From: Candidatus Nomurabacteria bacterium
Lineage (GTDB): Bacteria > Patescibacteriota > Patescibacteriia > Magasanikbacterales > UBA922
Length of the DNA stretch: 64,000 nt
Assembly (NCBI GenBank): GCA_020632445.1
Contig: JACKFN010000005.1
Span: forward strand, 30,786-94,785
Direction: 5' to 3'
The notes under the pieces are model-generated. The model did not search any database and was not told where the DNA came from. It saw nothing but the letters and a program-made list of their open reading frames with translations. Every line of letters starts with the position of its first letter. Positions within the stretch are counted from its first letter, which is position 1. The translations under genes and the position numbers were made by a program. Positions 4,701 to 62,459 of the stretch are shown in pieces.

Positions 4701-5825
4701 CTATTGCCGTATAGGCATAACAAGGTACAAATAATCTTCTTTCCCCTTTCCGCGCATCATACAAGGCGCATCATGAGAATTCATCAAAAATTCCATTTCT
4801 TCACTATCAAGATTTGCCAATCCATCGAGGACGTATCTAAAGTTGAGCAAAATGGCGTTTTCCTCTCCGGCCACTTGCGCTTCCACTTGTGAAGAGTGCT
4901 CACCGGTTTGGCTGCTCATTGAAGCCACCATAACTGCAGACTCAGAAGGACTGAGCGTAAAATTCACTCCGTTTATACCCGTGCTGCTAAACAAACTGGC
5001 CGCTTTGATTTTCTTATGAAACGCATCCACACTCACAATCGCATGTGTTTTAAACTCTGTGGGGATTATTTGTGCATAATCTGGATAACTCCCAGATACC
5101 AGCCGACTCGTTATCTCAAAACTTTCATACCGTACCCCAATCTGATTGTCACTCACCCACATTCGCACTTGTGTTTCCTTTCCAGAATTTTTCACGCTTG
5201 AAAGGAGCCTTGCAACTTCCATTACTGTTTTGATTGGCAAAATACATTGGCGCACATCACTCCCCTGTGCCACCGAAACTTTCTTTTCCGCAAGACGGTA
5301 TGAATCAGTCGCAGCCATTACGAGTCCTTCATACCTGTCGGTAAAAAATCCACAGTACACCCCAGAAAGCTCTGGTCGAATGTCATTTTTGGCGGCGGCA
5401 ATTCCCACTCGTGTTAGGGCATCTGCAAATACGTCTACTAAAATGGTATATACAGAACCTTCTTCTGCTTCTGGAATAATTGGATAATCCTCTGAAGGGC
5501 TTCCCTTAATTTTGGTTGATGAGTCATTACAAGAAACCACCAATTCATTTTCCTCAACGGATATTTCAATTTGTTCATCAGATATGAGTGAAACAAAATC
5601 GTAAAGCGTTTTTGCCGGCACGGTAAATTTTCCCGCTATTTCCACCTTGGCACGCAGACTGCACTTTACCACCATTTCAAGATTGGTACTCACAAACTCT
5701 ACTCTAGATTCTGTTGCGTCAATCAAAACATTACTCAGTATTGGAAGATTGGACTGTTTACCAGCAAGTGGGGCAACTAAATTAAGTGCTCCTACAAGAT
5801 TTTCTTTCGTACAAACAAATTTCAT
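4701..5825 (-). CDS. dnaN: DNA polymerase III subunit beta (sliding clamp)
   Basis: 374 aa, MKFVCTKENLVGALNLVAPLAGKQSNLPILSNVLIDATESRVEFVSTNLEM..., three-domain clamp pattern; sits immediately downstream of dnaA as in most bacteria. Confidence 0.95.
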   Translation of the reverse strand: MKFVCTKENLVGALNLVAPLAGKQSNLPILSNVLIDATESRVEFVSTNLEMVVKCSLRAKVEIAGKFTVPAKTLYDFVSLISDEQIEISVEENELVVSCNDSSTKIKGSPSEDYPIIPEAEEGSVYTILVDVFADALTRVGIAAAKNDIRPELSGVYCGFFTDRYEGLVMAATDSYRLAEKKVSVAQGSDVRQCILPIKTVMEVARLLSSVKNSGKETQVRMWVSDNQIGVRYESFEITSRLVSGSYPDYAQIIPTEFKTHAIVSVDAFHKKIKAASLFSSTGINGVNFTLSPSESAVMVASMSSQTGEHSSQVEAQVAGEENAILLNFRYVLDGLANLDSEEMEFLMNSHDAPCMMRGKGKEDYLYLVMPIRQ

Positions 5826-8538: not shown

Positions 8539-8589
8539 TTTGAGGAGTTTGTCAATGTGCTTCTTGAGGAGTTTTTGTCTCTGCGAGTG

Positions 8590-8635: not shown

Positions 8636-8642
8636 ATGCGAG

Positions 8643-30504: not shown

Positions 30505-30583
30505 AATCCAAAACAAAAAACTTCCATTCAAGGAAGTTTTTTGTTTTCCGGATTGACAAAGGATTTTTTTTGATGAATAATAA

Positions 30584-31006: not shown

Positions 31007-31029
31007 ATCCTAGCGGCAGGCCGGACAAC

Positions 31030-33387: not shown

Positions 33388-33525
33388 TGTGGATAATACA
33401 TTCTGTTTGTATACACTAGTCTATACAAACAGAATTATTGATGGTTTTCTGGAAAATGTTATCCACAATTTATGGTGTTTTTCCACAGACTTATCCACAT
33501 CTTGTGGAAAATCAGTGGAAATGTG
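33388..33525. promoter_or_regulatory. Ectopic DnaA-box cluster (at least 7 boxes in about 140 bp)
   Basis: TGTGGATAA (33388), TTATCCACA (33449), TTTTCCACA (33480), TTATCCACA (33491), TGTGGAAAA (33503), AGTGGAAAT (33514), TGTGGAAAA (33522); bracketed by two copies of the P1 palindrome. Confidence 0.6.
33401..33434. repeat. P1 palindrome copy 1 (TTCTGTTTGTATACACTAGTCTATACAAACAGAA)
   Basis: 34-bp near-perfect palindrome, one central mismatch. Confidence 0.9.
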
Positions 33526-33536
33526 GAAAATTGACC

Positions 33537-33563
33537 CTGTTTGTATAGACTAGTGTATACAAA
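33537..33563. repeat. P1 palindrome copy 2 (CTGTTTGTATAGACTAGTGTATACAAA)
   Basis: Read directly. Confidence 0.9.
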
Positions 33564-37842: not shown

Positions 37843-37868
37843 TAAACAAAAAAACGGATCTAATCCAT
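37843..37868. terminator. A/T-flanked hairpin terminator directly followed by TTGAAGGTGGGG
   Basis: AAACAAAAAAACGGATCTAATCCATTTTTTTGTTT. Confidence 0.45.
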
Positions 37869-37899
37869 TTTTTTGTTTGGTTGAAGGTGGGGTTCAGGA

Positions 37900-38520
37900 T
37901 CACGCGTACTTAGGTCGATCGCGCAATCTCCGATTCGGTCGGTCATAGTACCACAAAACGACATTGGCGGAAACGAGCAAGCTGTAGGTGGGGTTGACCC
38001 ACATGAACACCGGGTCCTCCCGCCAGAAGAAGTAGAAGGTCCACACGAGTGCACTGATCAGATAGATGATCTGCAGTCGGACATCGACCCTTCCCCTGCC
38101 CTTGAGCCACATCTCGCGAGTTTGTAAATAGGCCGCAAAGATGATCAACGCCATGATGGCTGAAAAGGTCTCACGCTTGTGCACGGTGCTGTACATGAAT
38201 GTCGTTGCCAGCGTACTTAGAGCGACTATTATCCAGTCACGTCTGAGCCACTTCTTGTATTTCCAGAGGCCGACAAGTACGGGGAGTTGGCTGACTACGA
38301 GCACTCCACCGTTGTACAGGATCATCTCCTCCCAGCCACGCCAAACGCCGTAGTCGATCTGCGCTATCGATGCAGCGAGGTAGTAGACAAACCAGGATAC
38401 GGATACCGCTTCAGCACTTTGAGACCTAAAGATCTTGTACGCCTGGAGCGCTGACCCTACGGCTTGCGCGATGGTGAAGATGACGATCCCGACACCGACG
38501 AGCATGAGTTGGTTGAACAT
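37900..38520 (-). CDS. Membrane protein with tandem LAB_N-like (lipid-A-disaccharide-synthase N-terminal-like) repeats, encoded in a GC-rich island
   Basis: 206 aa, about 6 TM; the second repeat holds LQTREMWLKGRGRVDV...FYFFWREDPVFMWVNP, resembling the LAB_N consensus (R..QW..SEK...S..P..FW...RxDPVF). About 58% GC. Stop TAA followed 17 nt later by AACCCCACCTTCAACC. Confidence 0.4.
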   Translation of the reverse strand: MFNQLMLVGVGIVIFTIAQAVGSALQAYKIFRSQSAEAVSVSWFVYYLAASIAQIDYGVWRGWEEMILYNGGVLVVSQLPVLVGLWKYKKWLRRDWIIVALSTLATTFMYSTVHKRETFSAIMALIIFAAYLQTREMWLKGRGRVDVRLQIIYLISALVWTFYFFWREDPVFMWVNPTYSLLVSANVVLWYYDRPNRRLRDRPKYA

Positions 38521-38621
38521 GCTGACCTCCTCGTGTTTAACTCAACCTATCACACAACCACAAAATTGTAAATACTAGGAACCAAAAAACACCTTTCGGT
38601 GTTTTTTGACTACTTGATTGA

Positions 38622-39722: not shown

Positions 39723-39987
39723 AGAGTTATGAGAGTAAATAAAATGGAGCCCAGAAGGGCTCCGTGCAAGTCACTCTCAAAATCTAAAGGCGAATAAAGA
39801 TTGTGAGAAGTGTCTTGCAAGCAACACTCCTGTTTCGCCTTTAAAAGTTGTTATCTTTGACATGGTATTATATGCGAAAAAGAGACAAATGTCAATAATG
39901 TCATAACAATATAGATACAAATTTATTTAAAGATAAACAAAAAAATGCTGTTGACAATACATCAACAACATGCTATGGTGTACATAT

Positions 39988-40749
39988 ATGATACAAGAAA
40001 CGCTCAAGCATCTGGGTCTTACTGAAAAGGAAATTCAGATATACCTTGCAATTTTGCAGCATGGTCAGATTGGTGCCACGCAGATTGCCAAGTACACTCA
40101 GATAAATCGAACCACGGTATATAGTGTGGCAAAAGAGCTTCTTCGAAAGAACTTGATTGCTGAGGACCTCGCGTCACCTGTTGCAAAATTTGTGGCACTC
40201 CACCCATCTACGATTGAGTCGCAGATAAAACGAGAGGAAGAAAAATTGCATGACAAAAAACGTTGGGCCATGAAGGCTGTTCGTGAGCTTAACACCTTCA
40301 CTCAGAGCACAAAGTATTCTGTGCCACGCATTGTGTTTGTGGAAGAGGAAGATGTAGAAGCGCATTTGTATAAGCAGGCAGATGTTTGGAACAAAAGTAT
40401 TCTCGACAACAATACAATGTATTGGGGATTCCAGGATCGGCATTTTGTCAAGCACTATGAGCATTGGATAGACGACTATTGGGCAAAGTTTCCCTCATCT
40501 AAACAAGTTTCTTTGAGATTGGTGAGCGACGAGGAAGCCGAAAGACTCAAAGGGAAAAAGTACCCAAGGCGTCAGATTAAATTTTGGGAAAAGGCAAAAG
40601 ACTTTACGGCAACAACCTGGGTCATGGGAGATTACGTAACGATGATCGTTACGGAGAAGCGACCTCATTATTTGGTGGAAATATATGATGTGACACTTGC
40701 ACATAATCTGCGTGAAGTGTTCAAGGGATTGTGGGAAGAGATTGATTGA
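39988..40749 (+). CDS. TrmB-like winged-helix transcriptional regulator (paralogue 4)
   Basis: Start at the internal ATG (MIQETLKHLGLTEKEIQIYLAILQHGQIGATQIAKYTQINRTTVYSVAKELLRKNLI); C-terminal FKGLWEEID; promoter-like TTGACA-17-TATGGT upstream. Confidence 0.6.
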   Translation: MIQETLKHLGLTEKEIQIYLAILQHGQIGATQIAKYTQINRTTVYSVAKELLRKNLIAEDLASPVAKFVALHPSTIESQIKREEEKLHDKKRWAMKAVRELNTFTQSTKYSVPRIVFVEEEDVEAHLYKQADVWNKSILDNNTMYWGFQDRHFVKHYEHWIDDYWAKFPSSKQVSLRLVSDEEAERLKGKKYPRRQIKFWEKAKDFTATTWVMGDYVTMIVTEKRPHYLVEIYDVTLAHNLREVFKGLWEEID

Positions 40750-42187: not shown

Positions 42188-42523
42188 TTATTTTAATTTC
42201 TCATTATTGGCGTGACGTTCGGCGTCGCGCTTGGTTTTCTTTTCCAGATTTTTTGCAAGTGCCTCGCTGAGATCAACGCCGGTTTGGTTGGCAAGACAAA
42301 TCAGCACAAAGAGCACATCTGCCATTTCATCGGAGAGGTCGTATTGCTCGTCACTTTTTTTGAAGCTTTGGTCACCGTAGGTGCGTGTAATGATTCGTGA
42401 CATCTCTCCTACTTCTTCCATCAGCTGACCGAGGTTGGTTAGCTCAGAAAAGTATCGCACACCAATCGTATTGATCCAATCATCAACGTCTTTTTGGGCT
42501 TGTTTGAGGGTAAGGTCTTTCAT
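42188..42523 (-). CDS. MazG-like nucleotide pyrophosphohydrolase
   Basis: 111 aa; EEVGEMSRIITRTYGDQSFKKSDEQYDLSDEMADVLFVLICLANQTGVDLSEA matches the all-alpha NTP-PPase EExxE/D...ELGD-like metal-binding helix pattern. Confidence 0.65.
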   Translation of the reverse strand: MKDLTLKQAQKDVDDWINTIGVRYFSELTNLGQLMEEVGEMSRIITRTYGDQSFKKSDEQYDLSDEMADVLFVLICLANQTGVDLSEALAKNLEKKTKRDAERHANNEKLK

Positions 42524-42639
42524 AATGTAGTTTCTTTTAGCTTAACATATATCTTGACAGGGAGGAAATCGCATGATACGATGCCGTGTCATAGCAGCTT
42601 ACCCGGTGGTCGGGACAGCGCTGTGCATGCTTGGGAGCA

Positions 42640-43042
42640 AAAAATGAGGCGTTGTGAGCAGAAATTCAGTGTACCCACAACGGTAGGCGTCCACGCCTAT
42701 CATCTGGTGGTCACTGCGCAGGTCGCTCGGGTGATTGGTGAGTGTGGACTGCGCACCTTGGTAGTGGCGAACTGTGCTAGGGGTGACCAGTTTGAGGCCA
42801 GGATTCTCGTTGGTGAGGTGGGATGGAGCCGCGTTGTAAGGGTTAGGGAAGCAAGTGTCCAAGACGAGGATCCAATCATAGAGATGCTTCACTTACACAC
42901 TCGGAATTTGGGTGTGGCTTCGTCTGAGGGGCGTGTCGTCCATGAGTTTCGGCTGTCTGAGTTGATCAGTGGCGGACTCGAGGTGATCAGAGATCGGCTC
43001 CAATGGAGGCAGCACAAGAGCAGATTGCTCAGCAGATGTTGA
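42640..43042 (+). CDS. Hypothetical protein (134 aa) in a GC-rich island, preceded by a 22-codon leader ORF (42573..42641) with ATGA stop/start overlap
   Basis: GGGAGGAA SD 6 nt before the ATG at 42573 (MIRCRVIAAYPVVGTALCMLGSKK); its TGA overlaps the ATG of MRRCEQKFSVPTTVGVHAYHLVV... Downstream ATCCCACCTCCATCGAC, then a strong terminator. Confidence 0.35.
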
Positions 43043-45097: not shown

Positions 45098-45129
45098 TCT
45101 GTTTGTATACACTAGTGTATACAAACAGA
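45098..45129. repeat. P1 palindrome copy 3 (TCTGTTTGTATACACTAGTGTATACAAACAGA, perfect 32-mer)
   Basis: Read directly; a DnaA-box-like TGTGGATAT lies 26 bp upstream (45064). Confidence 0.9.
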
Positions 45130-45351: not shown

Positions 45352-45413
45352 CATTTTGCGCATTTGGCAATTTCGAATGCTCGTCTCACGCACTACCCTC
45401 CTTTTGTTTGCTT

Positions 45414-45854
45414 ATGGAATTTGCCCTTCGCTCTGCAACAATTGATGATAAAGAATTTCTCTATCAGCTGAATAAATCAACCATGAGTTCCCATGTTGAG
45501 AGAATTTGGGGTTCTTGGGATGATGCATGGCAAAGAGATAACTTTGATAAGAAGTTCACTCTCGAGGGTTATGACGTCATTGATGTAGATGGTCGTAATG
45601 CAGGTGCTCTATGGGTTTCACGTGAAACATCTCAAATAAAGGTAGAAAGGCTGCATATCCTCTCTGAATTTCAGGGGCGTGGTATAGGAACGCGTATTCT
45701 TAGAAATCTCATAAGAGAGGCTAGTGATCAGTCAAGGGAGATCGTTTTAAGCGTTTTAAGAACAAATACTCGTGCAAAATCATTGTATGAGCGTCTTGGC
45801 TTTGAGGAGATTGGTAATGACGGGAATAAGTTTCACATGAAACATTTTGTTTAA
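45414..45854 (+). CDS. GNAT-family N-acetyltransferase
   Basis: About 147 aa; acetyl-CoA binding motif QGRGIGTRILRNLIREA and C-terminal LYERLGFEE. The last codons overlap a P2-type palindrome (GTTTCACATGAAACAT). Confidence 0.7.
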   Translation: MEFALRSATIDDKEFLYQLNKSTMSSHVERIWGSWDDAWQRDNFDKKFTLEGYDVIDVDGRNAGALWVSRETSQIKVERLHILSEFQGRGIGTRILRNLIREASDQSREIVLSVLRTNTRAKSLYERLGFEEIGNDGNKFHMKHFV

Positions 45855-45863: not shown

Positions 45864-45889
45864 GTTTGTATACACTAGTGTATACAAAC
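45864..45889. repeat. P1 palindrome copy 4 (GTTTGTATACACTAGTGTATACAAAC)
   Basis: Read directly. Confidence 0.9.
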
Positions 45890-46096: not shown

Positions 46097-46110
46097 GTTT
46101 CACGTGAAAC
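46097..46110. repeat. P2 palindrome (GTTTCACGTGAAAC) copy; other copies at 45830..45845 (CACATG variant) and 46268..46283
   Basis: Read directly; 14-16-bp perfect palindrome around a CACGTG core. Confidence 0.85.
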
Positions 46111-46235: not shown

Positions 46236-46260
46236 GTTTGTATACACTAGTGTATACAAA
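46236..46260. repeat. P1 palindrome copy 5 (GTTTGTATACACTAGTGTATACAAA); perfect DnaA box TGTGGATAA at 46210..46218 just upstream
   Basis: Read directly. Confidence 0.9.
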
Positions 46261-46267: not shown

Positions 46268-46283
46268 TGTTTCACGTGAAACA
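46268..46283. repeat. P2 palindrome copy (TGTTTCACGTGAAACA) abutting the stop codon of the TrmB-like gene
   Basis: Read directly. Confidence 0.85.
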
Positions 46284-47033
46284 TTAATCTATTTTCGGCA
46301 TAACACGGGTTGTCTGCCATAGCACACTAAAGAGATTTTTTTGTGTCTGAGAGTAATCGGTGGATTCTATAATAAGGGCAAACCCCTCACGCTTTGTACT
46401 GAGTACAACTACTTTGTTGTCATAAAGATATGTTGAGGTAGGAAAGATCATCTCAGCTGGTGCAAAGTGAACCGTGCGCAGCTCCTTGTCACTCGAGGCC
46501 CAGTCCTGGTCAATATCTTTGTCCTGGGAGCGTATGACATCAAGATGAATACCTAGGGATATTCGCTGCTGGATATGCTCATCCATAAAGGATTTTCCAA
46601 CGGTCTTGTAAAGATCCTCCATGGAAAGAATGGCACAAAGTTTTCTATTTTTGACGGTAAGTATATCGTTGAAAACAGATTGCATGCCATCTTGTCCCTC
46701 AAATATTCTTGTCCTAGGCTTGGTACCATTTGGGTTATAGAGTGCCATGAGATCTGGCAATGATTCATCAAGCTTTCTTTGCTTGCGACGAAGAAGGGAT
46801 TGAAGCATGTTCGGATTTTCTGCTGTATATATGCGAGTTCTGCCTTGCAAGACATAACTAACCACACCTATACTGCACAGTTGTTGAAGGATCTCATGTG
46901 TGGTGGTTCTGGGAAGCTGCGCATGATTGGCAACATCCTGTGCAGAGCCTGATCCAATCTCAAGAGTCGCAATAAAGACTTTTGCCTTTGATTTGTCGAT
47001 CCCAAATTCGCTCAATGCAGAGTAAATTGACAT
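46284..47033 (-). CDS. TrmB-like winged-helix transcriptional regulator (paralogue 5, solo)
   Basis: MSIYSALSEFGIDKSKAKVFIATLEIGSGSAQDVANHAQLPRTTTHEILQQLCSIGVV...; C-terminal LFSVLWQTT. Confidence 0.6.
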   Translation of the reverse strand: MSIYSALSEFGIDKSKAKVFIATLEIGSGSAQDVANHAQLPRTTTHEILQQLCSIGVVSYVLQGRTRIYTAENPNMLQSLLRRKQRKLDESLPDLMALYNPNGTKPRTRIFEGQDGMQSVFNDILTVKNRKLCAILSMEDLYKTVGKSFMDEHIQQRISLGIHLDVIRSQDKDIDQDWASSDKELRTVHFAPAEMIFPTSTYLYDNKVVVLSTKREGFALIIESTDYSQTQKNLFSVLWQTTRVMPKID

Positions 47034-47166: not shown

Positions 47167-47904
47167 TTGTACCATATGTTAGACACGATGATAACAGAAC
47201 TCTGTATTGAGTTGGCAAATCACCGGAGTATGAAGCCTCTCAAGTCCAGAAATGCTCAACCAGACGAGTTTCTATGCTTCGTCTGTGAAAGAGTTGATAG
47301 TGCTAGAGTGTTTCTCGACTTACTTAAAAAGATGATTCATGTTTGCCAAGGTGATCAAGATCTCCTACTTCGAAAGGCAATAGAAGAAAACCTCCATGAT
47401 GAGCGTGGGGTTGGAAAAGGAAAAAGTGCCTCACATGATAAGTGGCGGGAGGATTACTTAGAAGGTATCCAAAAGCTTCACCATGAACGTGTATGCTGCT
47501 GCGACCATACTTGCCACTTTGTGTACAAGCAGGTATTTCGTGATGCTGTCATGAGGGGAGACAAAGGAGAAATGCTTGGGGTTTTGCTCTATCTTGAGCG
47601 AGTAATCCCCATCGAATTTGCATTTATTAGAAGCTATCAGGATAAGGTATTTTGCGGAATTTTCGTGTATTCCCAGATAGATACTCATCAACAACGTGCA
47701 ATCAAGAGAAAGCTTCGGCGGTATCTGGATGATCATATCGTTCACGATGCTGTAGATCACTACCCAAAACTCCTGCAGGCAATCCAGTTAAGTGGCAGTG
47801 ACTTATCCATGCAGGAGAAAATAGCATATGGCGCCAAGATCATCCATCGTGCAAAGTTGCTCAGCTACGAAACACATTTTCGCAAAAGAAAAACAGGCGT
47901 TTAA
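47167..47904 (+). CDS. Heme-oxygenase-like fold protein (TenA/PqqC/CADD-type iron-containing redox enzyme family), tentative
   Basis: 245 aa with spaced E/H/D ligand-like motifs (EENLHDERG...HDKWREDYLEGI...HDAVDH), all-alpha composition. Confidence 0.35.
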   Translation: MYHMLDTMITELCIELANHRSMKPLKSRNAQPDEFLCFVCERVDSARVFLDLLKKMIHVCQGDQDLLLRKAIEENLHDERGVGKGKSASHDKWREDYLEGIQKLHHERVCCCDHTCHFVYKQVFRDAVMRGDKGEMLGVLLYLERVIPIEFAFIRSYQDKVFCGIFVYSQIDTHQQRAIKRKLRRYLDDHIVHDAVDHYPKLLQAIQLSGSDLSMQEKIAYGAKIIHRAKLLSYETHFRKRKTGV

Positions 47905-47925
47905 CCTGTTTTTTGGTATCAAACA
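47895..47925. terminator. Bidirectional terminator
   Basis: AAAAACAGGcgtttaaCCTGTTTTTTGG. Confidence 0.5.
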
Positions 47926-47988
47926 ACGTTTTCTATCCTGCATGCAAGACACAAATGGAGGTTTGACGGGTGGGGCGTCGCGGTAGGG

Positions 47989-48645
47989 TTAGGCAACCAC
48001 GCTGGAGCGGTGGTCAAGGGCCTCGGCGATCGCAGCAAGGGGCATGGTGAATTCTCGATCACCTTTTTGGAACATAACCTCGCCCCTGCGCAGCAGGTTG
48101 CGGACGGTGCTCTGCGTGATGTGCAGTACGCCGATGAGGTGACACATCTCGATGCCGTAACGTCGGATGACCAGGTAGGCCGCGAGTTGGCGGATGAGGG
48201 CGTATCGGCCTCTCGTGTGAGCGACGATGTCGCCGATATCACAATCGAAGACGATGCAGACCAGGTGGAGGATCTCACGAGCGCCAGCTTCTCCATGAAG
48301 GGACGAATCCCTTAACTGGATCCGAGGGGCCAGACTCCTAAAGGAAAGCCCGTGACGATGCATCATGGAGCGCACGCGGGACCGCAGTGTGGTGCTGGAC
48401 ACGCGTGTATCGAACTGTGCGGAAGTCAAGGACACGAGCTCACCGATGGTGTCGATCCCGTCACAAACCAGCCGACCTCTTCGCCAGATGCTGCAGAGTT
48501 CTTCGGCGTCGTCCATTGACAGACCAACGAGTTCTTCACACAGGAAGGTGTCTCCGGAAATACCCGACATGGCAGCTGCTCCGCAGATGATTGTGGTCAC
48601 TATCGGACAGAGTAAAGGAATTCTCGTCAAATGTAAAGCAGGCAT
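47989..48645 (-). CDS. GC-rich island protein with a C-terminal DnaA-domain-IV-like helix-turn-helix
   Basis: C-terminal RGRYALIRQLAAYLVIRRYGIEMCHLIGVLHITQSTVRNLLRRG aligns with the DnaA DNA-binding domain (compare this genome's own DnaA, [35 protein letters not shown]). The likely start is an internal ATG at 48570, which has a GGAGCAG SD. Stop TAA followed by CCCTACCGCGACGCCCCACCCGTCAAACC, then a terminator. Other frames in this about 64% GC stretch are also open. Confidence 0.4.
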   Translation of the reverse strand: MPALHLTRIPLLCPIVTTIICGAAAMSGISGDTFLCEELVGLSMDDAEELCSIWRRGRLVCDGIDTIGELVSLTSAQFDTRVSSTTLRSRVRSMMHRHGLSFRSLAPRIQLRDSSLHGEAGAREILHLVCIVFDCDIGDIVAHTRGRYALIRQLAAYLVIRRYGIEMCHLIGVLHITQSTVRNLLRRGEVMFQKGDREFTMPLAAIAEALDHRSSVVA

Positions 48646-48721
48646 GCTTTCAAGAGAAGCCGTTTCCTGTTTTTTGGTGTATGCTTCCTTTGTTTTGTGT
48701 GATATACTTTACAGGTAAAAT

Positions 48722-49396
48722 GTGTGTATGAAGAGCCGTTTTTTCTTGTGTATCAGTTTTTTTATTCTTTGTTGGCTTGCATGGCCAATTTCCTCGGATG
48801 CCTCCATGACAGGGGGGAGTTTTGAAATATATGCGGATGGCTTTTCCATGAATGACGCATCAAGCTCTACCGGAGGACTTCTGTCTCTTGAATCTACGGT
48901 AGGTGACTCATTTGCAACCACGACCGTGGGAGGTGCAATTACTTTACGTGGAGGATTTCAAGCAATGGAGAGAGGGATCCTGCGTCTTTCGCTCAGCAGT
49001 ACAACATTAGATTTTGGAACACTGTCAACAGGATCGATTACAACGAGTACACTTGTCGTTACGGTTTCGACGGATTCTGAAACTGGATATTCGCTTATGT
49101 TGAAAGAAGATGGAAATCTTCGTTCAGGAGTACACGACATCAATGATGTTGCCGATGGTTCTGTAACCGCCGGTCAAGAGGAATATGGTGTGTCGGTAAC
49201 AAGTACTGATCGAGCGGGTACGCTTCCTGCTGGTGATAGGCCGATCATTGCGGCAGGGACCACTATCGCGCAGTCATCGGGACAAGTTACGGATAGACAA
49301 ACAACGCTTACCTTTCGGGCTGCCATTGATGCCAATGTAAGAGGAGGGCTTACCTATTCTCATCAGGTAACTCTTCGAGCAACGGTAAATCCTTAG
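48722..49396 (+). CDS. Secreted beta-rich surface protein (WxL-/pilin-like?), first gene of the giant-surface-protein cluster
   Basis: Signal peptide; Ser/Thr/Gly-rich beta-strand-like sequence; no TM anchor. Confidence 0.35.
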   Translation: MCMKSRFFLCISFFILCWLAWPISSDASMTGGSFEIYADGFSMNDASSSTGGLLSLESTVGDSFATTTVGGAITLRGGFQAMERGILRLSLSSTTLDFGTLSTGSITTSTLVVTVSTDSETGYSLMLKEDGNLRSGVHDINDVADGSVTAGQEEYGVSVTSTDRAGTLPAGDRPIIAAGTTIAQSSGQVTDRQTTLTFRAAIDANVRGGLTYSHQVTLRATVNP

Positions 49397-53962: not shown

Positions 53963-54091
53963 GGTTAGCCAGCGCTGACCTTTTTTTGTCCACAAGATGG
54001 GGCGATTGAACAAAGACAAAAAGGTTTTTTTTTGGTAAAATAAAAGAAGGATTGTCACTTGTCGTGCAATTCTCATCATCTGAAATTTAAA

Positions 54092-57000
54092 ATGTTGCGC
54101 ACACCAAAGAAAACAATTCAGGAGGGTGTGTTATTGAGGTTTAAAAACGAGATCCTAACCGTCGTTATGGGAACCATTGTTGTGGTTACCCTTGTTTTGT
54201 TTGGTATTTTTGCCATGGCTGAAAATGTAGTGGGTGCGGCACCTCCAGCCATTATCACCTATCAAGGAAAACTGCTCAAAAGTGGTGCGGCCGTTACCAC
54301 GACACAACAAATGGGATTTATGGTCTATAGTGCGTCAACCGGTGGGTCGCTTTTGTATACAGCATCGGGGACACCAACAGTAACTTCGACGATTAACGTG
54401 CCCGTATCACAAGGAATTTTTTCTGTGAGCCTTGGTAATACCGGAACCAATAGTATCCCAGCAAGTATTTTTGCCACCAATACCGCACTTTATTTGCAGG
54501 TGTGGGTAAATGATGGTGGAACATACACCAAACTCACTCCTCGTAAGAGGTTGACGGCATCGCCATTTGCCATGAACAGTCAGTATCTTCTTGGGTATTC
54601 ACCTGCCGTTTCATCGACAAGTCAATATATACCGGTCTCAGATAGTAATGGAAACTTTGCCTTTCGTGGCGACCCACAGTCAACAGGAGTTGCCGGAGGA
54701 ACACTATATATCAATCCAGGGACAGCAGGCGCGAATGAAACACTGTTTGGAATAGCGCTCAATGGAAGTGAGCGTTTTCGTGTAGATGAAGATGGAGATA
54801 CGTGGATTGAAGGGGGATTGGTAGTAAGCACTACGCTCCAAGCTGCAACAACAACATTAGCAGAGCTTTCTGTTACAAACGGGATTACGCTAGGTGGCGT
54901 ACGAAGAACCACTTGGCCATCTGGTGGAGGTGGTGGTTCAAGCCTCTGGGCGAGCAGTACCGGAAGAGTTTATCCTGCAACCTTGACAGATGTTGTACTC
55001 GTTGGAAAAAATTCAACATCATCAGCGAGTACGGTTTTTGAAGTAAGTGGGTCTTCACTTTTTGAGGGAAATGTTTCTCTGAGTTCTGGTTCAACGCTCA
55101 CACTTGCGGGATCATTGACGCAAACTGGAATTTCAAGTTTTGCCACAACAACGTTTAACGGAGATCTTTCTGTGCTCAGTGACTTGAACGTTGGCTCAGG
55201 CAAACTCGTTTACGTTACAAGCACCGGATTTGTTGGGGTGAACACGTCAACACCAGGCGCGCAGTTTGCGGTTGACGGAAACGGATATTTCAAGGGAACA
55301 TATGATATAACTGCAGATTTGCGTATTCTCGATAATTTGTATGTTGGATCCCGATCAGAGGCAATTACTTCATCGACGTTTGCTCTTGATGGGGATGACG
55401 CATACATTCATGATTTGCTTGGTGTTGGTGATAGCATTTTTGTGGAAAATGCTTTGCACATTGGTACAAGTTCGCTGCATCTTACAGGAAATACTGGAGG
55501 TGCAGGTGGACTCATCCGTATGGATGGAGGGCCATTAGTTATTGACTCCGCCGGAGCGCTTAGCCTGAATACCAACAAAAATCAACAAATCTATACGGGA
55601 TCAGGAAACTTTGGTATCAACACAACCTCACCGGCGTATAATTTGAGTGTCGAGGGACAGGCCTATGTGAGTGCTACAGCCACTGCCAAGGATCTTGTGG
55701 TCAGTGATTCACTCACTCTTGGTGGTGTCAGACGGACGTCATGGCCTGGTGGAGTGGAAACCACTACAAATAACGATTTTTCTGGACTCAATACGTTCAG
55801 TGCAACGACAACATTTACTTCTACGACATTTTCTGGAAAGGCCACCATAAACAATTTGCTCAACGTGACAGGAAAAACATTCAACCCAAGACCTGCAGGT
55901 TCATATACCAACACCACGCTTTTTGATGATGTGGACAAGATTGTTGTAAAGAATAACATTGCGTATATTGGTTCTGCGACAGGTACCCTGTCACTTGTTG
56001 ATGTCAGTAATCCAAACAGCCCCGCACTCCTTGGTTCATATACGTCAACTACACTTGCGCCATTTGGTGGTGAGATGAATTTGCAGGTAGGTGGTCAGTA
56101 TGCCTACTTTGGTTCATCCAATGCATTCCATATCATTGATATATCAAAGCCAAAGTCTCCTACGTTTGTAGGTCAGATATTGAATTTTGGATTTCCTACT
56201 GGTTTGAGTGGTTCTACTGCACTTTCTGGAAGTGTTTTGTATGGTGCAAACGGCGTTGGTGGTGCAATGCCGGAATATATAGATATCACACGTGCGCATG
56301 AGCCAAGGAAGTATTCTCCAGCAGGAGCAAGCTCACTTGATCAGGGACGTGCCACTTTTGTATCGGGTCGATACGTGTATGTGCTTGGAAGCACGCCAAA
56401 TTTGGTTATCTTTGACTACAGTGATAAAACGCATCCTGTACAAGTTGGAATTGCCACATCGACAAGCTTTAGTAACATAAGTTTTACTGCGGAAAACGGT
56501 GATTTGTTTGTCGATGGTCGGTATGCTTATGTCACAGCACCTACATCGGGCTTTGGTGGTGGTGGTGATGCACTTACCATTGTGGATGTTGGTAATCCGG
56601 CTTCGCCAAGCGTTGTCGCTACATTACCTTCTACAACGAGCGCCTTGATGGATGATCCTACTTCAGTTGTTGCTGTCGGAGATTTGGTGTATATCACAAG
56701 TGAATCACAGAATTCCCTTGCCATTGTCGACGTTTCAACAAAAGCAAGTCCAACAGTGGTCGGGTCTATTACTGACTCTGGTGCTACGCTTTTACGTGGT
56801 GCCAAGTCGGTCGATGTTTCCGGAAATTATGCGTATGTGGTATCTCGGACCGACAAGTCGTTGCAGGTCATTGATATATCCGGGATCAAAGTCAATAATG
56901 CACAAATTGGTTCAGCACGTATAGAGCGAATTCAGGTATCCGGAAAATCATATTTTGATGAAGACATTGATATCGGTGGGGGACTCAGTGTTGGTGCTAA

Positions 57001-60000
57001 CGGGCTTCTGCTCAGAGGAGATTTAAATATTATTGGAAACGGTTCAATAAGTACTTCGACGATAAGTACGGGAACTATTCGTTTTGCGGGTGCGGCAAAT
57101 TTTAGAAGCGACATCACTTCGGGGAGTGCAGCATTTACCTTTAATCCTGGTGCAAATCTCGATACAGCCGTATTTAGGATACTGAATTCTTCGGGTTCGG
57201 AATTGTTTTACATGACCAAGGATGGATATTTGGGTATTGGAACCTCTACTCCATCCAAAAAATTAGAGGTGAGTGGAGATGCATACGTCAAGGACAACTT
57301 GTATGTCGGAAGGGGCACGGAGGCCATTACTTCATCGACATTTGCTCTTGATGGCGATGATGCATACATTCATGATCTTCTTGGTGTTGGTGATAGCATA
57401 TTTGTGGAAAATGCTTTGCATATTGGAACAAGTTCATTGCACCTTACCGGGGATACGGGTGCTACCACGGGTGGACTTATTCGTATGGATGGAGCTGGGC
57501 TTACGATTGATGCCGAGGGAACACTGAGTCTCAATACCCAAAGTGGGAATGGTATTAGCTTTGGTGGAAATGTCACCTCTGATTTGAGTGTTCGTGGTAA
57601 GGTGGGCTCTCCGGTAAACGTTGGAACCATTGATTTGTCATTTGGAAATACTGTAGAGGTTGTTGATGGCTATGCCTATGTTACTCTTATCGATGGTGGT
57701 TTCTCTATTATCGATGTTGGGAACCCGGCAACACCAACAACAACAGCAACCATTGATCCGGTTTCAAATTCTTATGACATCAGCGTATCGGGAAATTATG
57801 CATTTGTTTCGCATAACAATGGAGGATCTGACGGGATATCGGTTATTGACATTACAGATAAGTCCAATCCGTTTTCAGTAAAAAATTATCGGTTTTCTGC
57901 GCTGGCAGTAGAATCAGTTATTTCGGGAAATTATCTCTATGTAGCTGCCTCAACACAATTGAGTGTCATTGATATTTCAAATCCCCTTGAACCTGTTACG
58001 GTAGGTTCATGGTCTGGTGACTCTGTAGTTGGAATTGAAGTACAGGGAAGCTATGTGTATGTGAATGGTGGTACAGAAATTCATGTCATCGATGTATCTG
58101 AGCCTACAAGTCCCGTTCAGGTGGCTACATTCAACACGGCTCAGAGTATAAATGACATGATACTTGAAGACGGGTATATATATACAAGTGGTGGTAGTCC
58201 TGAAGGTGTTCGAATTTTTCGCGTCGGAGATAATGGAAATATACGACTGATTGGATCTCTGACATCAGGGCTTACCGATCTTCGAAAGATGGCAATATCA
58301 GGAGATTATCTTTATGCATCTGATTTTACTGATGGACTTGTCGTGATAGATATTAGCGATAAAACAGCACCGGTGGAAGTGGTTACCACGAATCCTGGAT
58401 CTTCTGGTGCACTTGATGTCGAGGCCGTTGGAAATTATGTGTACCTCGCTACCAAGGCAGATGGATTCCGTATTTTAGATGTCACAGCCATCCGTTCGGC
58501 CAATGCTCACATCGGTTCGCTTCGCACTGGTAGGCTGTATGTAGACAATCAGGCATTTTTTAGCCAGCCTGTGCATATCAATAGCGGACTGCATGTTGGC
58601 AATGATGGGCTGATGCTTTCCGGTGATTTTGCGATGTTTTCTAATTCTACATCGACGTCAGCCACTACAACCATGCGTTTTGGAGATACGGTGCGTTTCT
58701 TATCGACGGTGACGAGCTCTGATGATTATGCCTTTATTTTTGACACTCAGAATCGCTTGACCATCAATACTACGACATACATCATGTCCATTCGTAACAA
58801 TGGAGATCCGCTTTTCTCCATAGATACTCGTGGGGATGTCTACGCATCGGGTACATATCACGGAGAGGCCATTAATGTTAGCACCTCAGGACAGCCTGGA
58901 GACCTTGCCGAAAAAGTAGATATTGCCATAAATGAATCTGTTGAGCCTGGTGATGTTATCGTTGTTGATCATGAGGCGAATGATCGTTATAGAAAGAGTG
59001 TACAGCCATACCAAACAGGGGTAGCAGGTGTTATTGCTACCAATCCGACCATTGTCATCGGAAGCGGAAAGACAGAGAATCAAGCTAAGCTTACTATGGT
59101 TGGTCGTGTACCCGTAAAAGTAAGTGACGAAAATGGTGCGATCCAACGTGGAGACCTACTTGTTACCGGTTCTAAACCTGGGTATGCAATGAGATTTGAT
59201 CCATATCATGATACTGGCGCTCAAGCTGTCGGCGTCGTTGGTGTCGCACTTGAACCACTTCCTGTTAACGAAGGAAAAGTCATGGCGCTTATTCGTGGTG
59301 GATACATTAATAATCGGACCAAGACGCTTAGCGAAATTCAGCAAGATCTCTTATCATTGGCACAGTATGAAGGAATTCCGATTGGAACGAGTGTTCAGGA
59401 TTTAAGTATTAACATCAATTCAGAAGGGGGAATAGACAATCAGTTAGTAAATCAGGATTTGGGTGGTAGCTACATTATCAATGTAGCCGGATTGCTCGGA
59501 AAAGATGGAGCTTGGGAGGTGGATGATAATGGAAGATTTATTACGAAGGTTGCTACTTCGGCGGGTACTAAGGAGCTCTATGCTATTCAATCAGGGAATA
59601 CAGAATATGTGTTTTCGGGTACAGGACAGCTAGAGTCAGGAAGTGCGCGCGTAGATTTTGGTGAGGTTACTCAGGAGCTTATTGATGGTAATAAGCCTAT
59701 GAAGGTAAGTGTTACACTCACGTCCGAGGCAAACGGAATTTTTGTGGAGTCAAAGAATGCCACTGGATTTACGGTCAAGGAATTACAAAATGGAAGCAGT
59801 AGTGCAACCTTTGATTGGGTTGTAATAGCCCAAAGAAAGGTAATAGATAGCGATAATACTCATTCTGATGAGGGTGTTCAGGAGGCGCAGCAAGAGCGAC
59901 TAGAAGAGCAACCAGAAGAGCAACCAGAAGAGCAACAACCAGAGGTAGTGGAGGAAGAAGTTGGAGAAAGTGAAGAAAATGAAATCGTGGAGGATCCAAA

Positions 60001-60313
60001 CCCATTGACAGACGAATCGCCTGAACAGGATTTGGAAGAAGTGCCCCCGGAAGAAGTCCAAGAAGACAGCGAATTGGCTGAAGATGCCGACCCAGTGTCA
60101 GATGAGCCAACCGGGTCACAGGAGTCAGAATCAGAAGGAGCATCGGAAGAAGAGGTCTCAATTGATGAGGCTTCCCCACAAGAAGAGACGGTCCCTGAAG
60201 TCGCTGCGGAGCCAGAACCGGATCCTGTTGTTGAAGAGGTAATCGATCCAGATCCAGAGCCTGTCCCTGAAGAGGTGGTCGACCAGCCTTCTGAATCGAC
60301 AGAAGAAAACTAA
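54092..60313 (+). CDS. Giant surface protein (about 2070 aa): N-terminal membrane anchor, two tandem modules each comprising a fibre-like stalk plus a 7-bladed LVIVD-type beta-propeller, a C-terminal globular domain and an acidic Pro/Glu-rich tail
   Basis: Start uncertain (TTG at 54059 in the track; first ATG at 54092). Fourteen repeats of the form YAYV..(8-12 aa)..IIDVSNPxxP (for example AYIGSATGTLSLVDVSNPNSPALLGSY, YAYVTLIDGGFSIIDVGNPATPTTTATI). Stalk segments are about 90% identical at DNA level (about 55330..55560 and 57295..57530). C-terminal tail is EEQPEEQPEEQQPE... Confidence 0.75.
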   Translation: MLRTPKKTIQEGVLLRFKNEILTVVMGTIVVVTLVLFGIFAMAENVVGAAPPAIITYQGKLLKSGAAVTTTQQMGFMVYSASTGGSLLYTASGTPTVTSTINVPVSQGIFSVSLGNTGTNSIPASIFATNTALYLQVWVNDGGTYTKLTPRKRLTASPFAMNSQYLLGYSPAVSSTSQYIPVSDSNGNFAFRGDPQSTGVAGGTLYINPGTAGANETLFGIALNGSERFRVDEDGDTWIEGGLVVSTTLQAATTTLAELSVTNGITLGGVRRTTWPSGGGGGSSLWASSTGRVYPATLTDVVLVGKNSTSSASTVFEVSGSSLFEGNVSLSSGSTLTLAGSLTQTGISSFATTTFNGDLSVLSDLNVGSGKLVYVTSTGFVGVNTSTPGAQFAVDGNGYFKGTYDITADLRILDNLYVGSRSEAITSSTFALDGDDAYIHDLLGVGDSIFVENALHIGTSSLHLTGNTGGAGGLIRMDGGPLVIDSAGALSLNTNKNQQIYTGSGNFGINTTSPAYNLSVEGQAYVSATATAKDLVVSDSLTLGGVRRTSWPGGVETTTNNDFSGLNTFSATTTFTSTTFSGKATINNLLNVTGKTFNPRPAGSYTNTTLFDDVDKIVVKNNIAYIGSATGTLSLVDVSNPNSPALLGSYTSTTLAPFGGEMNLQVGGQYAYFGSSNAFHIIDISKPKSPTFVGQILNFGFPTGLSGSTALSGSVLYGANGVGGAMPEYIDITRAHEPRKYSPAGASSLDQGRATFVSGRYVYVLGSTPNLVIFDYSDKTHPVQVGIATSTSFSNISFTAENGDLFVDGRYAYVTAPTSGFGGGGDALTIVDVGNPASPSVVATLPSTTSALMDDPTSVVAVGDLVYITSESQNSLAIVDVSTKASPTVVGSITDSGATLLRGAKSVDVSGNYAYVVSRTDKSLQVIDISGIKVNNAQIGSARIERIQVSGKSYFDEDIDIGGGLSVGANGLLLRGDLNIIGNGSISTSTISTGTIRFAGAANFRSDITSGSAAFTFNPGANLDTAVFRILNSSGSELFYMTKDGYLGIGTSTPSKKLEVSGDAYVKDNLYVGRGTEAITSSTFALDGDDAYIHDLLGVGDSIFVENALHIGTSSLHLTGDTGATTGGLIRMDGAGLTIDAEGTLSLNTQSGNGISFGGNVTSDLSVRGKVGSPVNVGTIDLSFGNTVEVVDGYAYVTLIDGGFSIIDVGNPATPTTTATIDPVSNSYDISVSGNYAFVSHNNGGSDGISVIDITDKSNPFSVKNYRFSALAVESVISGNYLYVAASTQLSVIDISNPLEPVTVGSWSGDSVVGIEVQGSYVYVNGGTEIHVIDVSEPTSPVQVATFNTAQSINDMILEDGYIYTSGGSPEGVRIFRVGDNGNIRLIGSLTSGLTDLRKMAISGDYLYASDFTDGLVVIDISDKTAPVEVVTTNPGSSGALDVEAVGNYVYLATKADGFRILDVTAIRSANAHIGSLRTGRLYVDNQAFFSQPVHINSGLHVGNDGLMLSGDFAMFSNSTSTSATTTMRFGDTVRFLSTVTSSDDYAFIFDTQNRLTINTTTYIMSIRNNGDPLFSIDTRGDVYASGTYHGEAINVSTSGQPGDLAEKVDIAINESVEPGDVIVVDHEANDRYRKSVQPYQTGVAGVIATNPTIVIGSGKTENQAKLTMVGRVPVKVSDENGAIQRGDLLVTGSKPGYAMRFDPYHDTGAQAVGVVGVALEPLPVNEGKVMALIRGGYINNRTKTLSEIQQDLLSLAQYEGIPIGTSVQDLSININSEGGIDNQLVNQDLGGSYIINVAGLLGKDGAWEVDDNGRFITKVATSAGTKELYAIQSGNTEYVFSGTGQLESGSARVDFGEVTQELIDGNKPMKVSVTLTSEANGIFVESKNATGFTVKELQNGSSSATFDWVVIAQRKVIDSDNTHSDEGVQEAQQERLEEQPEEQPEEQQPEVVEEEVGESEENEIVEDPNPLTDESPEQDLEEVPPEEVQEDSELAEDADPVSDEPTGSQESESEGASEEEVSIDEASPQEETVPEVAAEPEPDPVVEEVIDPDPEPVPEEVVDQPSESTEEN

Positions 60314-60723: not shown

Positions 60724-60797
60724 GGGCCTGTAACTCAGCTGGCTAGAGTGTCGCCATGGCATGGCGGAAGTCAGGGGTTCAAATCCCCTCAGGTCCA
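60724..60797 (+). tRNA. tRNA-Ala (anticodon GGC) with the G3:U70 identity pair
   Basis: GGGCCTGTAACTCAGCTGGCTAGAGTGTCGCCATGGCATGGCGGAAGTCAGGGGTTCAAATCCCCTCAGGTCCA: acceptor GGGCCTG/CAGGTCC with G3-U70 wobble, anticodon loop AU-GGC-AU, T-arm AGGGG-TTCAAAT-CCCCT; CCA not encoded. A hairpin terminator follows at about 60815..60850. Confidence 0.85.
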
Positions 60798-61100
60798 CAC
60801 TTCGGTATTAGAGGCGTTTTCGATATGATCGAGAACGCTTTTTTTAGTCGGCGGAAGTTTGACCTTCGAGCTGGGCAACATACCAAAAAGCTGTATTAAA
60901 TGCCCTACTCAACAAAAAAACCATTAACTTAGGCAAAAAACAGGGTTTTGTACGCCCTCTCCTGTCTTGATAATGGCATTGACAAAATGCAACTCATTTG
61001 ATAAGGTTTAATGTTCATTGAGACCTGTTTTTGACTCGTGTGCAGGAACAGTTCGTATCTGCGAATTGTACCGGCTCACGAACAATAAGCGGGGCTTTCG

Positions 61101-62201
61101 ATGAAGAAGCTTACCTATCGGATAGTACAGTTTTGGTCTTTCTTCCAGGAGCACGTGTACGGTCGTAGCGAGGAGGTCTCGCTCCAGATCAATCCGAGTG
61201 TGCTTTCTCGGGAGATGAGAGGCTACCACGCACAGGCGCTCTGGCACAGCCACATCTCACTGCTGTTCGTATACGTCTCGACGTTACTCGTGTGGTGTGC
61301 TTGGGAAGCAATCAATTCCCAAACAGTTCTTAACGGTGTTGGAACAGGTATATGGGATTGGGAGTCGGTGCTCAGTGGCGTGATTCTCTACCTGATGCTG
61401 GTTTTTCTCTTCGCAGTTCCATTGTGTGGATCGAGCTGGCTTCGACGTGATAACACGGTGCGATTCACGCGCGGATTCATGACTGATGAAGTCAAGGATC
61501 TACTTGAGAGGTATAGGTGGTTTTATTTCGACGACAAAGTCACCTATCGCATGGTCTTCACGAACCGCAATCCCATCTTCTTCCTGCGAATCCTCGAACG
61601 GTTTCCCTGTCAGTGCGACTGGAGCAAGCCCGTACGCAAGGACCTTCTTACATGGCTGATCATCTGTGTCCTTGAGCCATTGCTTTTCCAGCAGATTTAC
61701 CTGCGGGTCATCTGGCCTTACTTGATCAATCCATTTCAGTTGGCCTTTCTGTCGTACGACGAAGCAGCCAAAACAGCAGACCTCAAAGAGGGCGAACGTG
61801 TGCTCGTCCTCGGTGCGGGTGCTGTTCCCCACCACATTCGCTGGAAGCGTCGGCTGAGTGCTCGTGGTTGGATCGTGGCACTCGACGATAACCCCTACGT
61901 GCTTCGAGACTCACGAAGGATTGAAGCGCTTATCGAGTGGCTACGCGGACTGCTGCGTCTCCAACGTCGAGAAGTCACTAAGTACGTGCGGGCTGACAAC
62001 CTTACCCTACCATTCCCTGATGCAAGCTTCGACGCGGTCATTGCGATTCGTTGCTATGTCATAAACGTCGATGAAGCGAAACGTGTACTCAAGCCGGGTG
62101 GTCGACTTGTCGTTATCTGTTGTGGCGAGGTACGAGGCAAGGACCTGCACCATCAAGCCGGACTCCAGGTAACCTATGATGGGTTTGTCCTCACCATTTG
62201 A
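61101..62201 (+). CDS. Membrane-anchored class I SAM-dependent methyltransferase, in a GC-rich island adjacent to tRNA-Ala
   Basis: N-terminal about 200 aa with several TM helices; C-terminal Rossmann MTase motifs VLVLGAGAVP (motif I), DAVIAIRC, LKPGGRLVV. About 55-60% GC. Stop TGA followed by TCCACCAACCCACCATCACAACC. Confidence 0.55.
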   Translation: MKKLTYRIVQFWSFFQEHVYGRSEEVSLQINPSVLSREMRGYHAQALWHSHISLLFVYVSTLLVWCAWEAINSQTVLNGVGTGIWDWESVLSGVILYLMLVFLFAVPLCGSSWLRRDNTVRFTRGFMTDEVKDLLERYRWFYFDDKVTYRMVFTNRNPIFFLRILERFPCQCDWSKPVRKDLLTWLIICVLEPLLFQQIYLRVIWPYLINPFQLAFLSYDEAAKTADLKEGERVLVLGAGAVPHHIRWKRRLSARGWIVALDDNPYVLRDSRRIEALIEWLRGLLRLQRREVTKYVRADNLTLPFPDASFDAVIAIRCYVINVDEAKRVLKPGGRLVVICCGEVRGKDLHHQAGLQVTYDGFVLTI

Positions 62202-62459
62202 TTACACCGCATGAATTCCACCAACCCACCATCACAACCCTAGTACACCAATCCGTTGGTGCCCTTGGTGTTGTTTCAATCACATCTCGTTCACGTTCTT
62301 TTTATCATAGTCCCAATAGAGCTGAGGGTCGTGCGTCTTTTCGATTTTATATTGAGTACTCTTCTTTGTCAGAGATTGCATCGCATCCCTTTGGTCTCAG
62401 CAGAGTAAACAAAAAAAGCCACTGCGAGTGGCTTTTTTTGGTATTTGCCGAGGGTGTGC

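Follow-up and report, generated by a model that had tools for sequence, protein, structure and literature searches.

A GC-rich single-gene island in a Candidatus Nomurabacteria chromosome and the faint DnaA-like signal in its orphan protein

Does a small GC-rich island in the chromosome of a member of the candidate phyla radiation (CPR) encode a stand-alone copy of the DNA-binding domain of DnaA, or a DNA-binding protein of another kind? The question arises in a 64,000-nucleotide stretch of Candidatus Nomurabacteria DNA (the window, to which all coordinates refer), which is the origin-proximal part of the chromosome. A sequence-only reading had placed a GC-rich island at 47920-48700, had recognised the fold of DnaA domain IV in the C-terminus of its protein, and had proposed that this protein could bind DnaA boxes and compete with or mimic DnaA. 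Computational analysis of the locus leads us to a different reading, to which we give a probability of about one half: the island would be a foreign single-gene segment inserted at a terminator, encoding an orphan helix-turn-helix (HTH) DNA-binding protein of mobile-element type, whose C-terminal domain is perhaps a distant winged relative of domain IV without the DnaA-box motif.

Composition and junctions of the island

In 300-nt windows over 47900-48650 the DNA reaches 55-59% GC, against a mean of 44.1% for the window, in which 200-nt windows have a standard deviation of 5.3%. A 200-nt scan bounds the island at 47892-48631 (56.4% GC), and a core of 56-59% GC, delimited by eye at about 47965-48600, nearly coincides with the coding part. 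These values bear out the GC-rich island described from the sequence. Positions 47611-48744 agree at 100% identity with a contig that Logan assembled from run SRR12358675; because this independent contig is identical across both junctions, the island sequence, its open reading frame (ORF) and its junctions are not artefacts of genome assembly.

The island is enclosed by a perfect 13-bp direct repeat, CCTGTTTTTTGGT, which has exactly two copies in the window, at 47905-47917 and 48666-48678 (both read on the plus strand), and the segment between them (47918-48665, assigned to neither strand) measures 748 bp with 56.4% GC. The repeat derives from the terminator of the neighbouring gene: the left copy forms the 3' half and T-tail of a hairpin resembling a bidirectional intrinsic terminator (AAAAACAGG-n7-CCTGTTTTT, 47888-47914, unstranded), which is common to the convergent genes at 47167..47904 (+) and 47989..48570 (-). 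This 10-bp hairpin lies between an A-run and a T-run and folds on both strands, with energies of -9.7 and -10.6 kcal/mol (z -2.2 and -2.8). Ahead of the right copy stands the remainder of the terminator in decayed form, where AAGAAAAACAGGCGTTTAACCTGTTTTTTGGT aligns with AAGAGA, a gap of three, AGCCGTTT, a gap of two and CCTGTTTTTTGGT, making an imperfect repeat of about 30 bp; the right copy folds no better than shuffled sequence, and only the left junction is a terminator. The description of the island as ending with a junction motif and a terminator is thus right about the motif, found at both ends, and right about the terminator on the left side only.

Terminators of comparable design lie at 37843-37880, 38581-38608 and 62410-62442, and the junction-like motif seen elsewhere in the window (…TTTTTTGGT) is merely the T-tail of the ordinary terminators of this genome. 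On direct reading, taking out the insert together with one repeat copy leaves a compact intergenic region, in which the terminator is followed by an AT-rich promoter region upstream of the gene at 48722. The layout of the junctions is, with moderate statistical support, the signature of insertion into, or recombination at, a terminator. If the segment was a mobile insertion, the empty site would read …CAGGCGTTTAACCTGTTTTTTGGTGTATGCTTCC… and the junction of an excised circle …GAGAAGCCGTTTCCTGTTTTTTGGTATCAAACAACG….

No terminal inverted repeats were found at the ends of the insert, where 446 of 2000 shuffles score as well, and a Pfam scan of some 40 window ORFs, which left aside the 2084-aa ORF at 54059..60313 and most ORFs shorter than 150 aa, turned up no recombinase, integrase or transposase. 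As an insertion sequence or transposon the segment would be incomplete, having no catalytic transposase domain beyond the weak HTH_Tnp_Tc3_2 and HTH_33 matches given below, no inverted repeats, and the direct repeat only.

The island gene and the resemblances of its product

The longest ORF of the island, at 47989..48645 (-), has 218 codons, and the C-terminal part of its translation contains the sequence (...RGRYALIRQLAAYLVIRRYGIEMCHLIGVLHITQSTVRNLLRRG...) on which the DnaA reading had been based. We take the coding sequence most likely to be the 193-aa frame from Met26 at 47989..48570 (-), which is 100% identical to the NCBI hypothetical protein H6758_03770, and the preceding 25 codons (48571..48645, -), which would give 218 aa from Met1, to be a possible N-terminal extension and more likely a 5' leader. 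The extension is hydrophobic (MPALHLTRIPLLCPIVTTIICGAAA), and on direct reading the GC content drops there. The start at Met26 is preferred because a Shine-Dalgarno-like GGAG (48579..48582, -) lies 8 nt upstream of its ATG and no such motif precedes the ATG of Met1, and because a hydrophobic tail of 25 residues would ill suit a DNA-binding protein; the GGAG is weak evidence, since only 8 of 25 other window genes checked show such a motif. A promoter scan called no sigma-70-like site upstream of the gene.

The earlier caution that overlapping frames leave the gene uncertain holds insofar as several frames are open (125 aa on the minus strand; 101, 117, 67 and 55 aa on the plus strand). The longest open frame in dinucleotide shuffles of the 748-bp insert averages 128 codons, so the lengths of the alternative frames are those expected by chance; an ORF with an ATG start and at least 193 aa occurs in 31 of 5000 shuffles (about 0.6%). 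In the main frame, GC at the first, second and third codon positions (GC1, GC2 and GC3) is 0.61, 0.45 and 0.69, and typical genes of the window have GC3 of 0.31-0.50. Muto and Osawa reportedly described in 1987 how codon-position GC relates to genomic GC, and by this background relation the pattern is that predicted for a genuine gene whose source genome has about 58% GC. Searched as a concatenate, four of the alternative ORFs (125, 101, 117 and 67 aa) drew no homologue out of 8000 candidates, nor does any of these four match a Pfam family. Even with E allowed up to 10, Rfam returned only three hits of chance level for the island; neither a tRNA nor a tmRNA gene was found in it, and its folding energy is no better than that of shuffles (z +1.0 and +0.9 on the two strands). 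Among the frames of the island, 47989..48570 (-) is the best gene candidate, and the alternative of another frame being the real gene, which would also have refuted the DnaA reading, finds no support in the homologue and Pfam searches.

The product is an orphan, without detectable relative in the databases searched. A word-indexed search of the 218-aa protein against 5.8 billion protein clusters returned only the protein itself, and a full HMMER scan of 1.84 billion representatives added a single repeat protein (P0002, 896 aa, E 1e-9). This candidate was rejected as a case of repeat inflation, since its apparent significance is the sum of a single weak match to a serine-rich repeat protein counted eleven times, at no more than 8.9 bits each. 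PDB sequences hold no homologue, and neither viral contigs, tblastn against phages and plasmids, nor the PADLOC defence-system models gave a match.

Family scans gave sub-threshold matches only, and all of these were to DNA-binding HTH families. Five Pfam HTH families and two PHROG DNA-binding families match the protein weakly. A weak HTH-like segment at residues 65-119 (…GLSFRSLAPRIQLRDSSLH…; 48289..48453, -) collects matches, all below threshold, to HTH_33 (residues 88-113, E 0.007), HTH_26 (91-143, E 0.01), HTH_Tnp_Tc3_2 (69-112, E 0.08) and the PHROG repressor phrog_4583 (83-144, E 0.006), and in BLASTP against the host DnaA it is residues 65-124 that align with domain IV (E 0.005) instead of the C-terminal part. 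An internal duplication of the protein was considered and rejected (BLASTP E 2.3). Nearer the C-terminus lie matches to HTH_17 (PF12728; residues 174-195, E 0.13, 13 bits against a gathering score of 27) and to the PHROG excisionase phrog_1840 (residues 176-216, E 0.17), together with the resemblance to DnaA.

We examined this last resemblance with several profiles. Pfam Bac_DnaA_C (PF08299) matches residues 124-159 with positions 3-39 of its 69-position profile at E 0.042, and the 14.3 bits obtained fall short of the gathering score of 31.5, so that the HMM search by which the DnaA reading could be checked gave no significant match. The NCBIfam DnaA model runs colinear with domain IV (its positions 369-458 of 462) over residues 123-210, with E 0.0095. 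Our own domain IV profile, built from the host DnaA, 17 CPR DnaA C-termini and four PDB sequences, gives the protein 11.5 bits, reached by 0 of 20000 shuffles, with its best stretch at residues 122-161 against profile positions 5-45 (8.0 bits); a broader profile, to which six phage stand-alone DnaA C-terminal proteins were added, gives 10.8 bits, reached by 3 of 20000. With hhalign, the first profile yields a probability of 33% and the broader one 56% in local and 58% in global mode (P 5e-4 to 1e-5), the aligned residues being 122-160 or 122-164. The likeness to domain IV would be significant were DnaA the sole family tested, and becomes borderline once some 20000 families that might equally have been noticed are counted.

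What aligns reliably is only the first half of the domain, namely helix 1, the basic loop HTRGR and the RQxAxYL helix (here RQLAAYL), which occupy residues 122-161 (48163..48282, -). The likeness to domain IV (PF08299; structures 1J1V and 3PVP) extends over about 100 C-terminal residues in layout, with a colinear helix 1 (hydrophobic x3 V x3 F D x x x x D I), the basic loop, the RQxAxYL helix and then an HTH with I-G and S-T-V; the HTH itself enters the alignment only with the full-length NCBIfam model or when a global alignment is forced, and not with Pfam, our own profiles or local hhalign. The putative HTH at residues 163-187 (GIEMCHLIGVLHITQSTVRNLLRRG; 48085..48159, -) does not carry the DnaA signature of the recognition helix (G-G/x-R-D-H-T/S-T-V/A), since GGRDHTTV is replaced by HITQSTV (L-H-I-T-Q-S-T-V). 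Among the 18 domain IV sequences aligned, G59, R61, D62, H63, T64 and T65 are invariant and G60 nearly so, and the signature is kept in the four PDB DnaA sequences (KRKDHTT in Aquifex) and in all 6 phage stand-alone proteins. The protein also lacks DnaA domains I-III.

A full-length single-sequence model from AlphaFold2 (AF2) was discarded as unusable, with a predicted local distance difference test score (pLDDT) of 44 and nothing below E 2 in a fold search of the PDB. The C-terminal 103 residues (116-218), modelled without an alignment, reached pLDDT 70 and a predicted template-modelling score (pTM) of 0.60 in the best of five models, and fold into five helices, a beta-hairpin and a final helix. 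Two of the helices (residues 167-174 and 178-187) make up the putative HTH. The hairpin, a predicted wing after the recognition helix at residues 189-202 (48040..48081, -; strands at model positions 74-79 and 82-87), has pLDDT of about 75, recurs in the full-length model, and takes the place of the last long helix of domain IV. Foldseek searches of the PDB with this model gave a best E of 0.12 and are led by MarR/ArsR winged-helix repressors, with the DNA-binding domain of Mycobacterium tuberculosis DnaA (3PVP) at rank 7 (E 0.31, template-modelling (TM) scores 0.41 and 0.44). In BFVD the lead goes to small phage proteins with the annotation "Chromosomal replication initiator, DnaA C-terminal", which fill 16 of the top 50 places, with rank 1 at E 0.02 and probability 0.96 and no match at E 0.001 or TM 0.5; because Foldseek also scores amino-acid sequence, this result is not independent of the profile results. 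The proposed domain IV fold of the C-terminus is partly supported: the first-half likeness exceeds that of shuffles and phage proteins lead the viral fold search; the similarity is sub-threshold and partial, the signature is exchanged, and no fold match to a model of moderate confidence is significant.

Competing explanations

The composition, the ORF, the direct repeats, the orphan status and the sub-threshold similarities are observed; a foreign origin, DNA binding and a regulatory role for the island and its protein are what we infer. On this reading, about 750 bp of foreign DNA from a donor of about 58% GC would sit in the terminator region between two ordinary Nomurabacteria genes, and its gene product would be mostly helical, probably with one or two HTH motifs. 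Its C-terminal 100 residues would probably be a very divergent relative of the DnaA domain IV/Trp-repressor-like DNA-binding class, which also occurs in small phage proteins and some transposases; the island copy would have lost the signature that reads DnaA boxes, and it apparently has a beta-hairpin wing. The protein would most likely act as a repressor-like or excisionase-like regulator that came with a mobile element and binds DNA sequence-specifically, at a target of its own and not at DnaA boxes.

Stand-alone DnaA C-terminal proteins are an existing class in tailed phages, where they measure 107-177 aa and lie in early or replication modules; examples are EVB37_086 of Rhizobium phage RHph_TM3_3_3 (152 aa), gp22 of Pelagibacter phage HTVC203P (177 aa), XAN61335 of Microcystis phage Mvi-Yong1342-1 (107 aa) and BFVD entries labelled "uncultured Caudovirales phage". 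Like the island protein they are of similar size, join an unrelated N-terminal part to a C-terminal domain of about 90 residues, and are carried on mobile DNA, and XAN61335 aligns to island protein residues 124-193 with a per-pair E of 7e-4. Unlike it, they score 47-89 bits against our own domain IV profile and keep G(G)RDHTTV, whereas the island protein scores 11 bits without the motif; and whereas the phage genes stand in early or replication modules, no phage neighbours of the island were seen among the window ORFs scanned. Short database proteins that consist of Bac_DnaA_C only were rejected as a further model: they come mostly from short contigs and look like fragments. In one case that we checked (P0016, from Candidatus Pacebacteria; JAJOJW010000020.1, 1622-3372), the ORF stands in the place of dnaA, with rpmH and dnaN on either side; the sole ORF called there is a 123-aa Bac_DnaA_C one, preceded by about 1.4 kb of uncalled DNA, and dnaA is probably frameshifted or broken in this assembly.

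A second comparison is with the TnpA-REP/TIRYT tyrosine transposases of subclass 2.1, whose C-terminal HTH extensions match Bac_DnaA_C, HTH_23 or HTH_28 weakly, have been proposed to be long and short versions of one ancestral HTH that does not recognise DnaA boxes, and are accompanied by flanking repeats without resemblance to DnaA boxes (PMC6006769). Because such domains grade into HTH_23 and HTH_28 in these transposases, a faint Bac_DnaA_C match marks a broad HTH class and not DnaA-box binding. The island protein differs in having no Y1 (HuH) transposase domain, and the likeness is drawn from the published description, not from sequence comparison.

Several points weigh against the reading that we prefer. 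The empty site was not found: the flanking gene 47167..47904 has no relative above 34% identity in GTDB genomes or JGI metagenomes. As no syntenic locus is available for comparison, we infer insertion from composition and repeats only. A shared word of at least 13 bp in the same geometry occurs at 1.6% of random positions, which makes the repeat only moderately improbable, and part of the repeat is low-complexity terminator sequence. No domain match reaches a curated threshold, every fold match has E above 0.01 and TM below 0.5, and AF2 confidence is moderate in one of five models only, the others scoring 41-59. Finally, the protein comes from one genome and has no homologues, so that a decaying, non-functional gene is conceivable.

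That last possibility, in which the ORF is not a working gene and the island is a stranded GC-rich foreign scrap with a decaying or fossil gene whose weak HTH matches are residual or due to chance, is the alternative that survives best, and we consider it unlikely. It would account for the failure to find a homologue in about 15 billion proteins, for the missing promoter call and for the unusually high cysteine content (8 of 218 residues), and GC-rich DNA keeps long frames, as shown by the shuffle mean and by the 0.6-0.9% of shuffles that reach the observed length. Against it, the ORF is intact and fills almost the whole GC-rich core, and its codon-position GC is that of a real gene. Several independent HTH- or DnaA-type signals fall on this one frame and the other frames give nothing, while the C-terminal domain folds to pLDDT 70 without an alignment.

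A somewhat smaller chance attaches to the island being a minimal remnant of an integrative element, in the manner of cis-mobilisable elements that have att sites and no integrase; its protein would end in an HTH of the excisionase/MerR winged type, and its 13-bp repeats would be the attL and attR cores. The HTH_17 and PHROG excisionase matches favour this explanation, as do the absence of terminal inverted repeats and the length of the repeats (13 bp perfect, about 30 bp imperfect), which is typical of an att core and not of most target-site duplications. As in winged HTH proteins of this type (PF12728), an HTH, a hairpin and a helix stand at the extreme C-terminus, and direct repeats stand on both sides of the insert; the pattern STVRNLLRRGEV-x4-G-x-R, with the predicted hairpin and helix after it, fits the HTH-wing-helix layout of excisionases, and we count it on the same side. 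Yet the DnaA-type matches are stronger than these, which reach E 0.13-0.17 only, the protein has about double the size of a typical excisionase, the insertion site is not a tRNA gene, and the repeat may reflect only the common design of this genome's terminators. No partner integrase or other recombinase appeared in the Pfam scan of window ORFs, with the omissions stated above.

The DnaA-box-binding paralogue proposed at the outset, which would recognise TTATCCACA and compete with or mimic DnaA at the origin-proximal box clusters, we hold to be improbable. In its favour stand the colinear, sub-threshold domain IV similarity, the phage DnaA C-terminal proteins at the top of the viral fold search, the existence of stand-alone proteins of this kind in phages, and the wealth of DnaA boxes in the window (43 with at most one mismatch against 17.8 expected, clustered at 4.3-7.6 kb and 33.39-33.53 kb). 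In E. coli DnaA, residues D433 and H434 contact bases, as seen in structure 1J1V. These residues have no counterpart in the island protein, where HITQSTV stands in place of a motif (GGRDHTT) that is invariant across the 18 domain IV sequences aligned and kept in PDB and phage proteins. The Pfam score is less than half the gathering score and covers the first half of the domain only, the model shows a hairpin where DnaA has a long helix, and its TM scores to the M. tuberculosis domain stay at 0.41-0.44. No DnaA box lies in or beside the island, the nearest being at 46210 and 49575. DnaA-box binding, or competition with DnaA, is not supported by the sequence.

Very improbable, in our estimate, is a bolder version in which a 0.75-kb cassette without an integrase, some 40 kb away from dnaA, would have brought in a strongly diverged winged derivative of domain IV that attaches to origin-associated DNA and thereby tunes the initiation of replication in a reduced genome; its target could be DnaA boxes or a palindrome, TTGTATACACTAGTGTATACAA, that brackets the box cluster at 33.4 kb and recurs at 45.1-46.3 kb. 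Least credible of all is that the island instead makes a structured RNA or is translated in a different frame, for although several frames are open and GC-rich islands in AT-rich genomes are often RNA genes, the four alternative ORFs searched (the 55-aa ORF not among them) have chance lengths and neither homologue nor Pfam match, and the island shows no Rfam match beyond chance level, no tRNA or tmRNA and no folding better than that of shuffles.

The surrounding window and the meaning of the island

The window annotation places dnaN at 4701..5825 (-) with dnaA upstream of it, and GC skew switches sign near 6 kb. Other genes of the window include polA, a class A penicillin-binding protein (PBP), trigger factor, rnpA, lspA, several TrmB-type regulators and periplasmic binding proteins. 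Of the TrmB-type HTH regulators, at least five paralogues, each about 250-280 aa long, lie in the 64 kb (8643-9485, 10697-11443, 16544-17302, 39970-40749 and 46284-47033), and several of them adjoin genes for periplasmic binding proteins.

Two sets of palindromes were seen among the DnaA boxes and regulators. The ectopic box cluster noted earlier at 33.4 kb, 26 kb from dnaA, packs six boxes into 143 bp (33388-33530), three of them perfect TTATCCACA boxes and three with one mismatch. The perfect 22-bp palindrome TTGTATACACTAGTGTATACAA has five copies in the window, where none is expected by chance: two of them (33407-33428 and 33541-33562) bracket this cluster, and the other three (45103-45124, 45866-45887 and 46238-46259) adjoin DnaA-like boxes at 45064, 45138 and 46210. 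It may be an operator for some regulator, or a repeat element tied to the box clusters. A second palindrome, GTTTCACGTGAAAC, has four copies within 700 bp against 0.46 expected (45615-45628, 45830-45843, 46097-46110 and 46269-46282); these lie around a 148-aa ORF at 45408..45854 and immediately ahead of the TrmB-type gene 46284..47033, and the last copy overlaps the stop end of that gene.

The island is also not unique in its composition. Other single-gene segments of high, foreign-looking GC3 (0.60-0.71) lie at 37900-38520 (-), 61101-62201 (+) and 62460-63032 (-). Two of these genes encode membrane proteins of about 200 aa, one with weak PQ-loop/MtN3 matches and a strong GAGGAGG ribosome-binding site, and the third encodes a methyltransferase just downstream of a tRNA-Ala gene (60724-60798). 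At the other GC-rich islands no flanking repeats longer than 9 bp were found. Further segments of 54-57% GC lie at 7631-8527, 30572-31139 and 42494-43042, where the ORFs have no Pfam match and Rfam gave no match at gathering score; the composition scan also lists a GC-rich stretch at 8065-8652. One of these segments is directly upstream of dnaA and holds a palindromic terminator (ACCAAAAAACACC-n8-GGTGTTTTTTGGT, 8015-8048), and another adjoins rnpA.

If the island protein were a true domain IV derivative acting at the origin, it would be a rare mobile gene that interferes with replication control in an ultra-small CPR genome; the evidence does not favour this. As it stands, the island would add one to the orphan genes for small DNA-binding proteins gained by horizontal transfer, and would be of modest value as an example of single-gene, GC-rich acquisition in a Nomurabacteria chromosome, and as a reminder that DnaA-box binding is not implied by weak matches of the Bac_DnaA_C kind.

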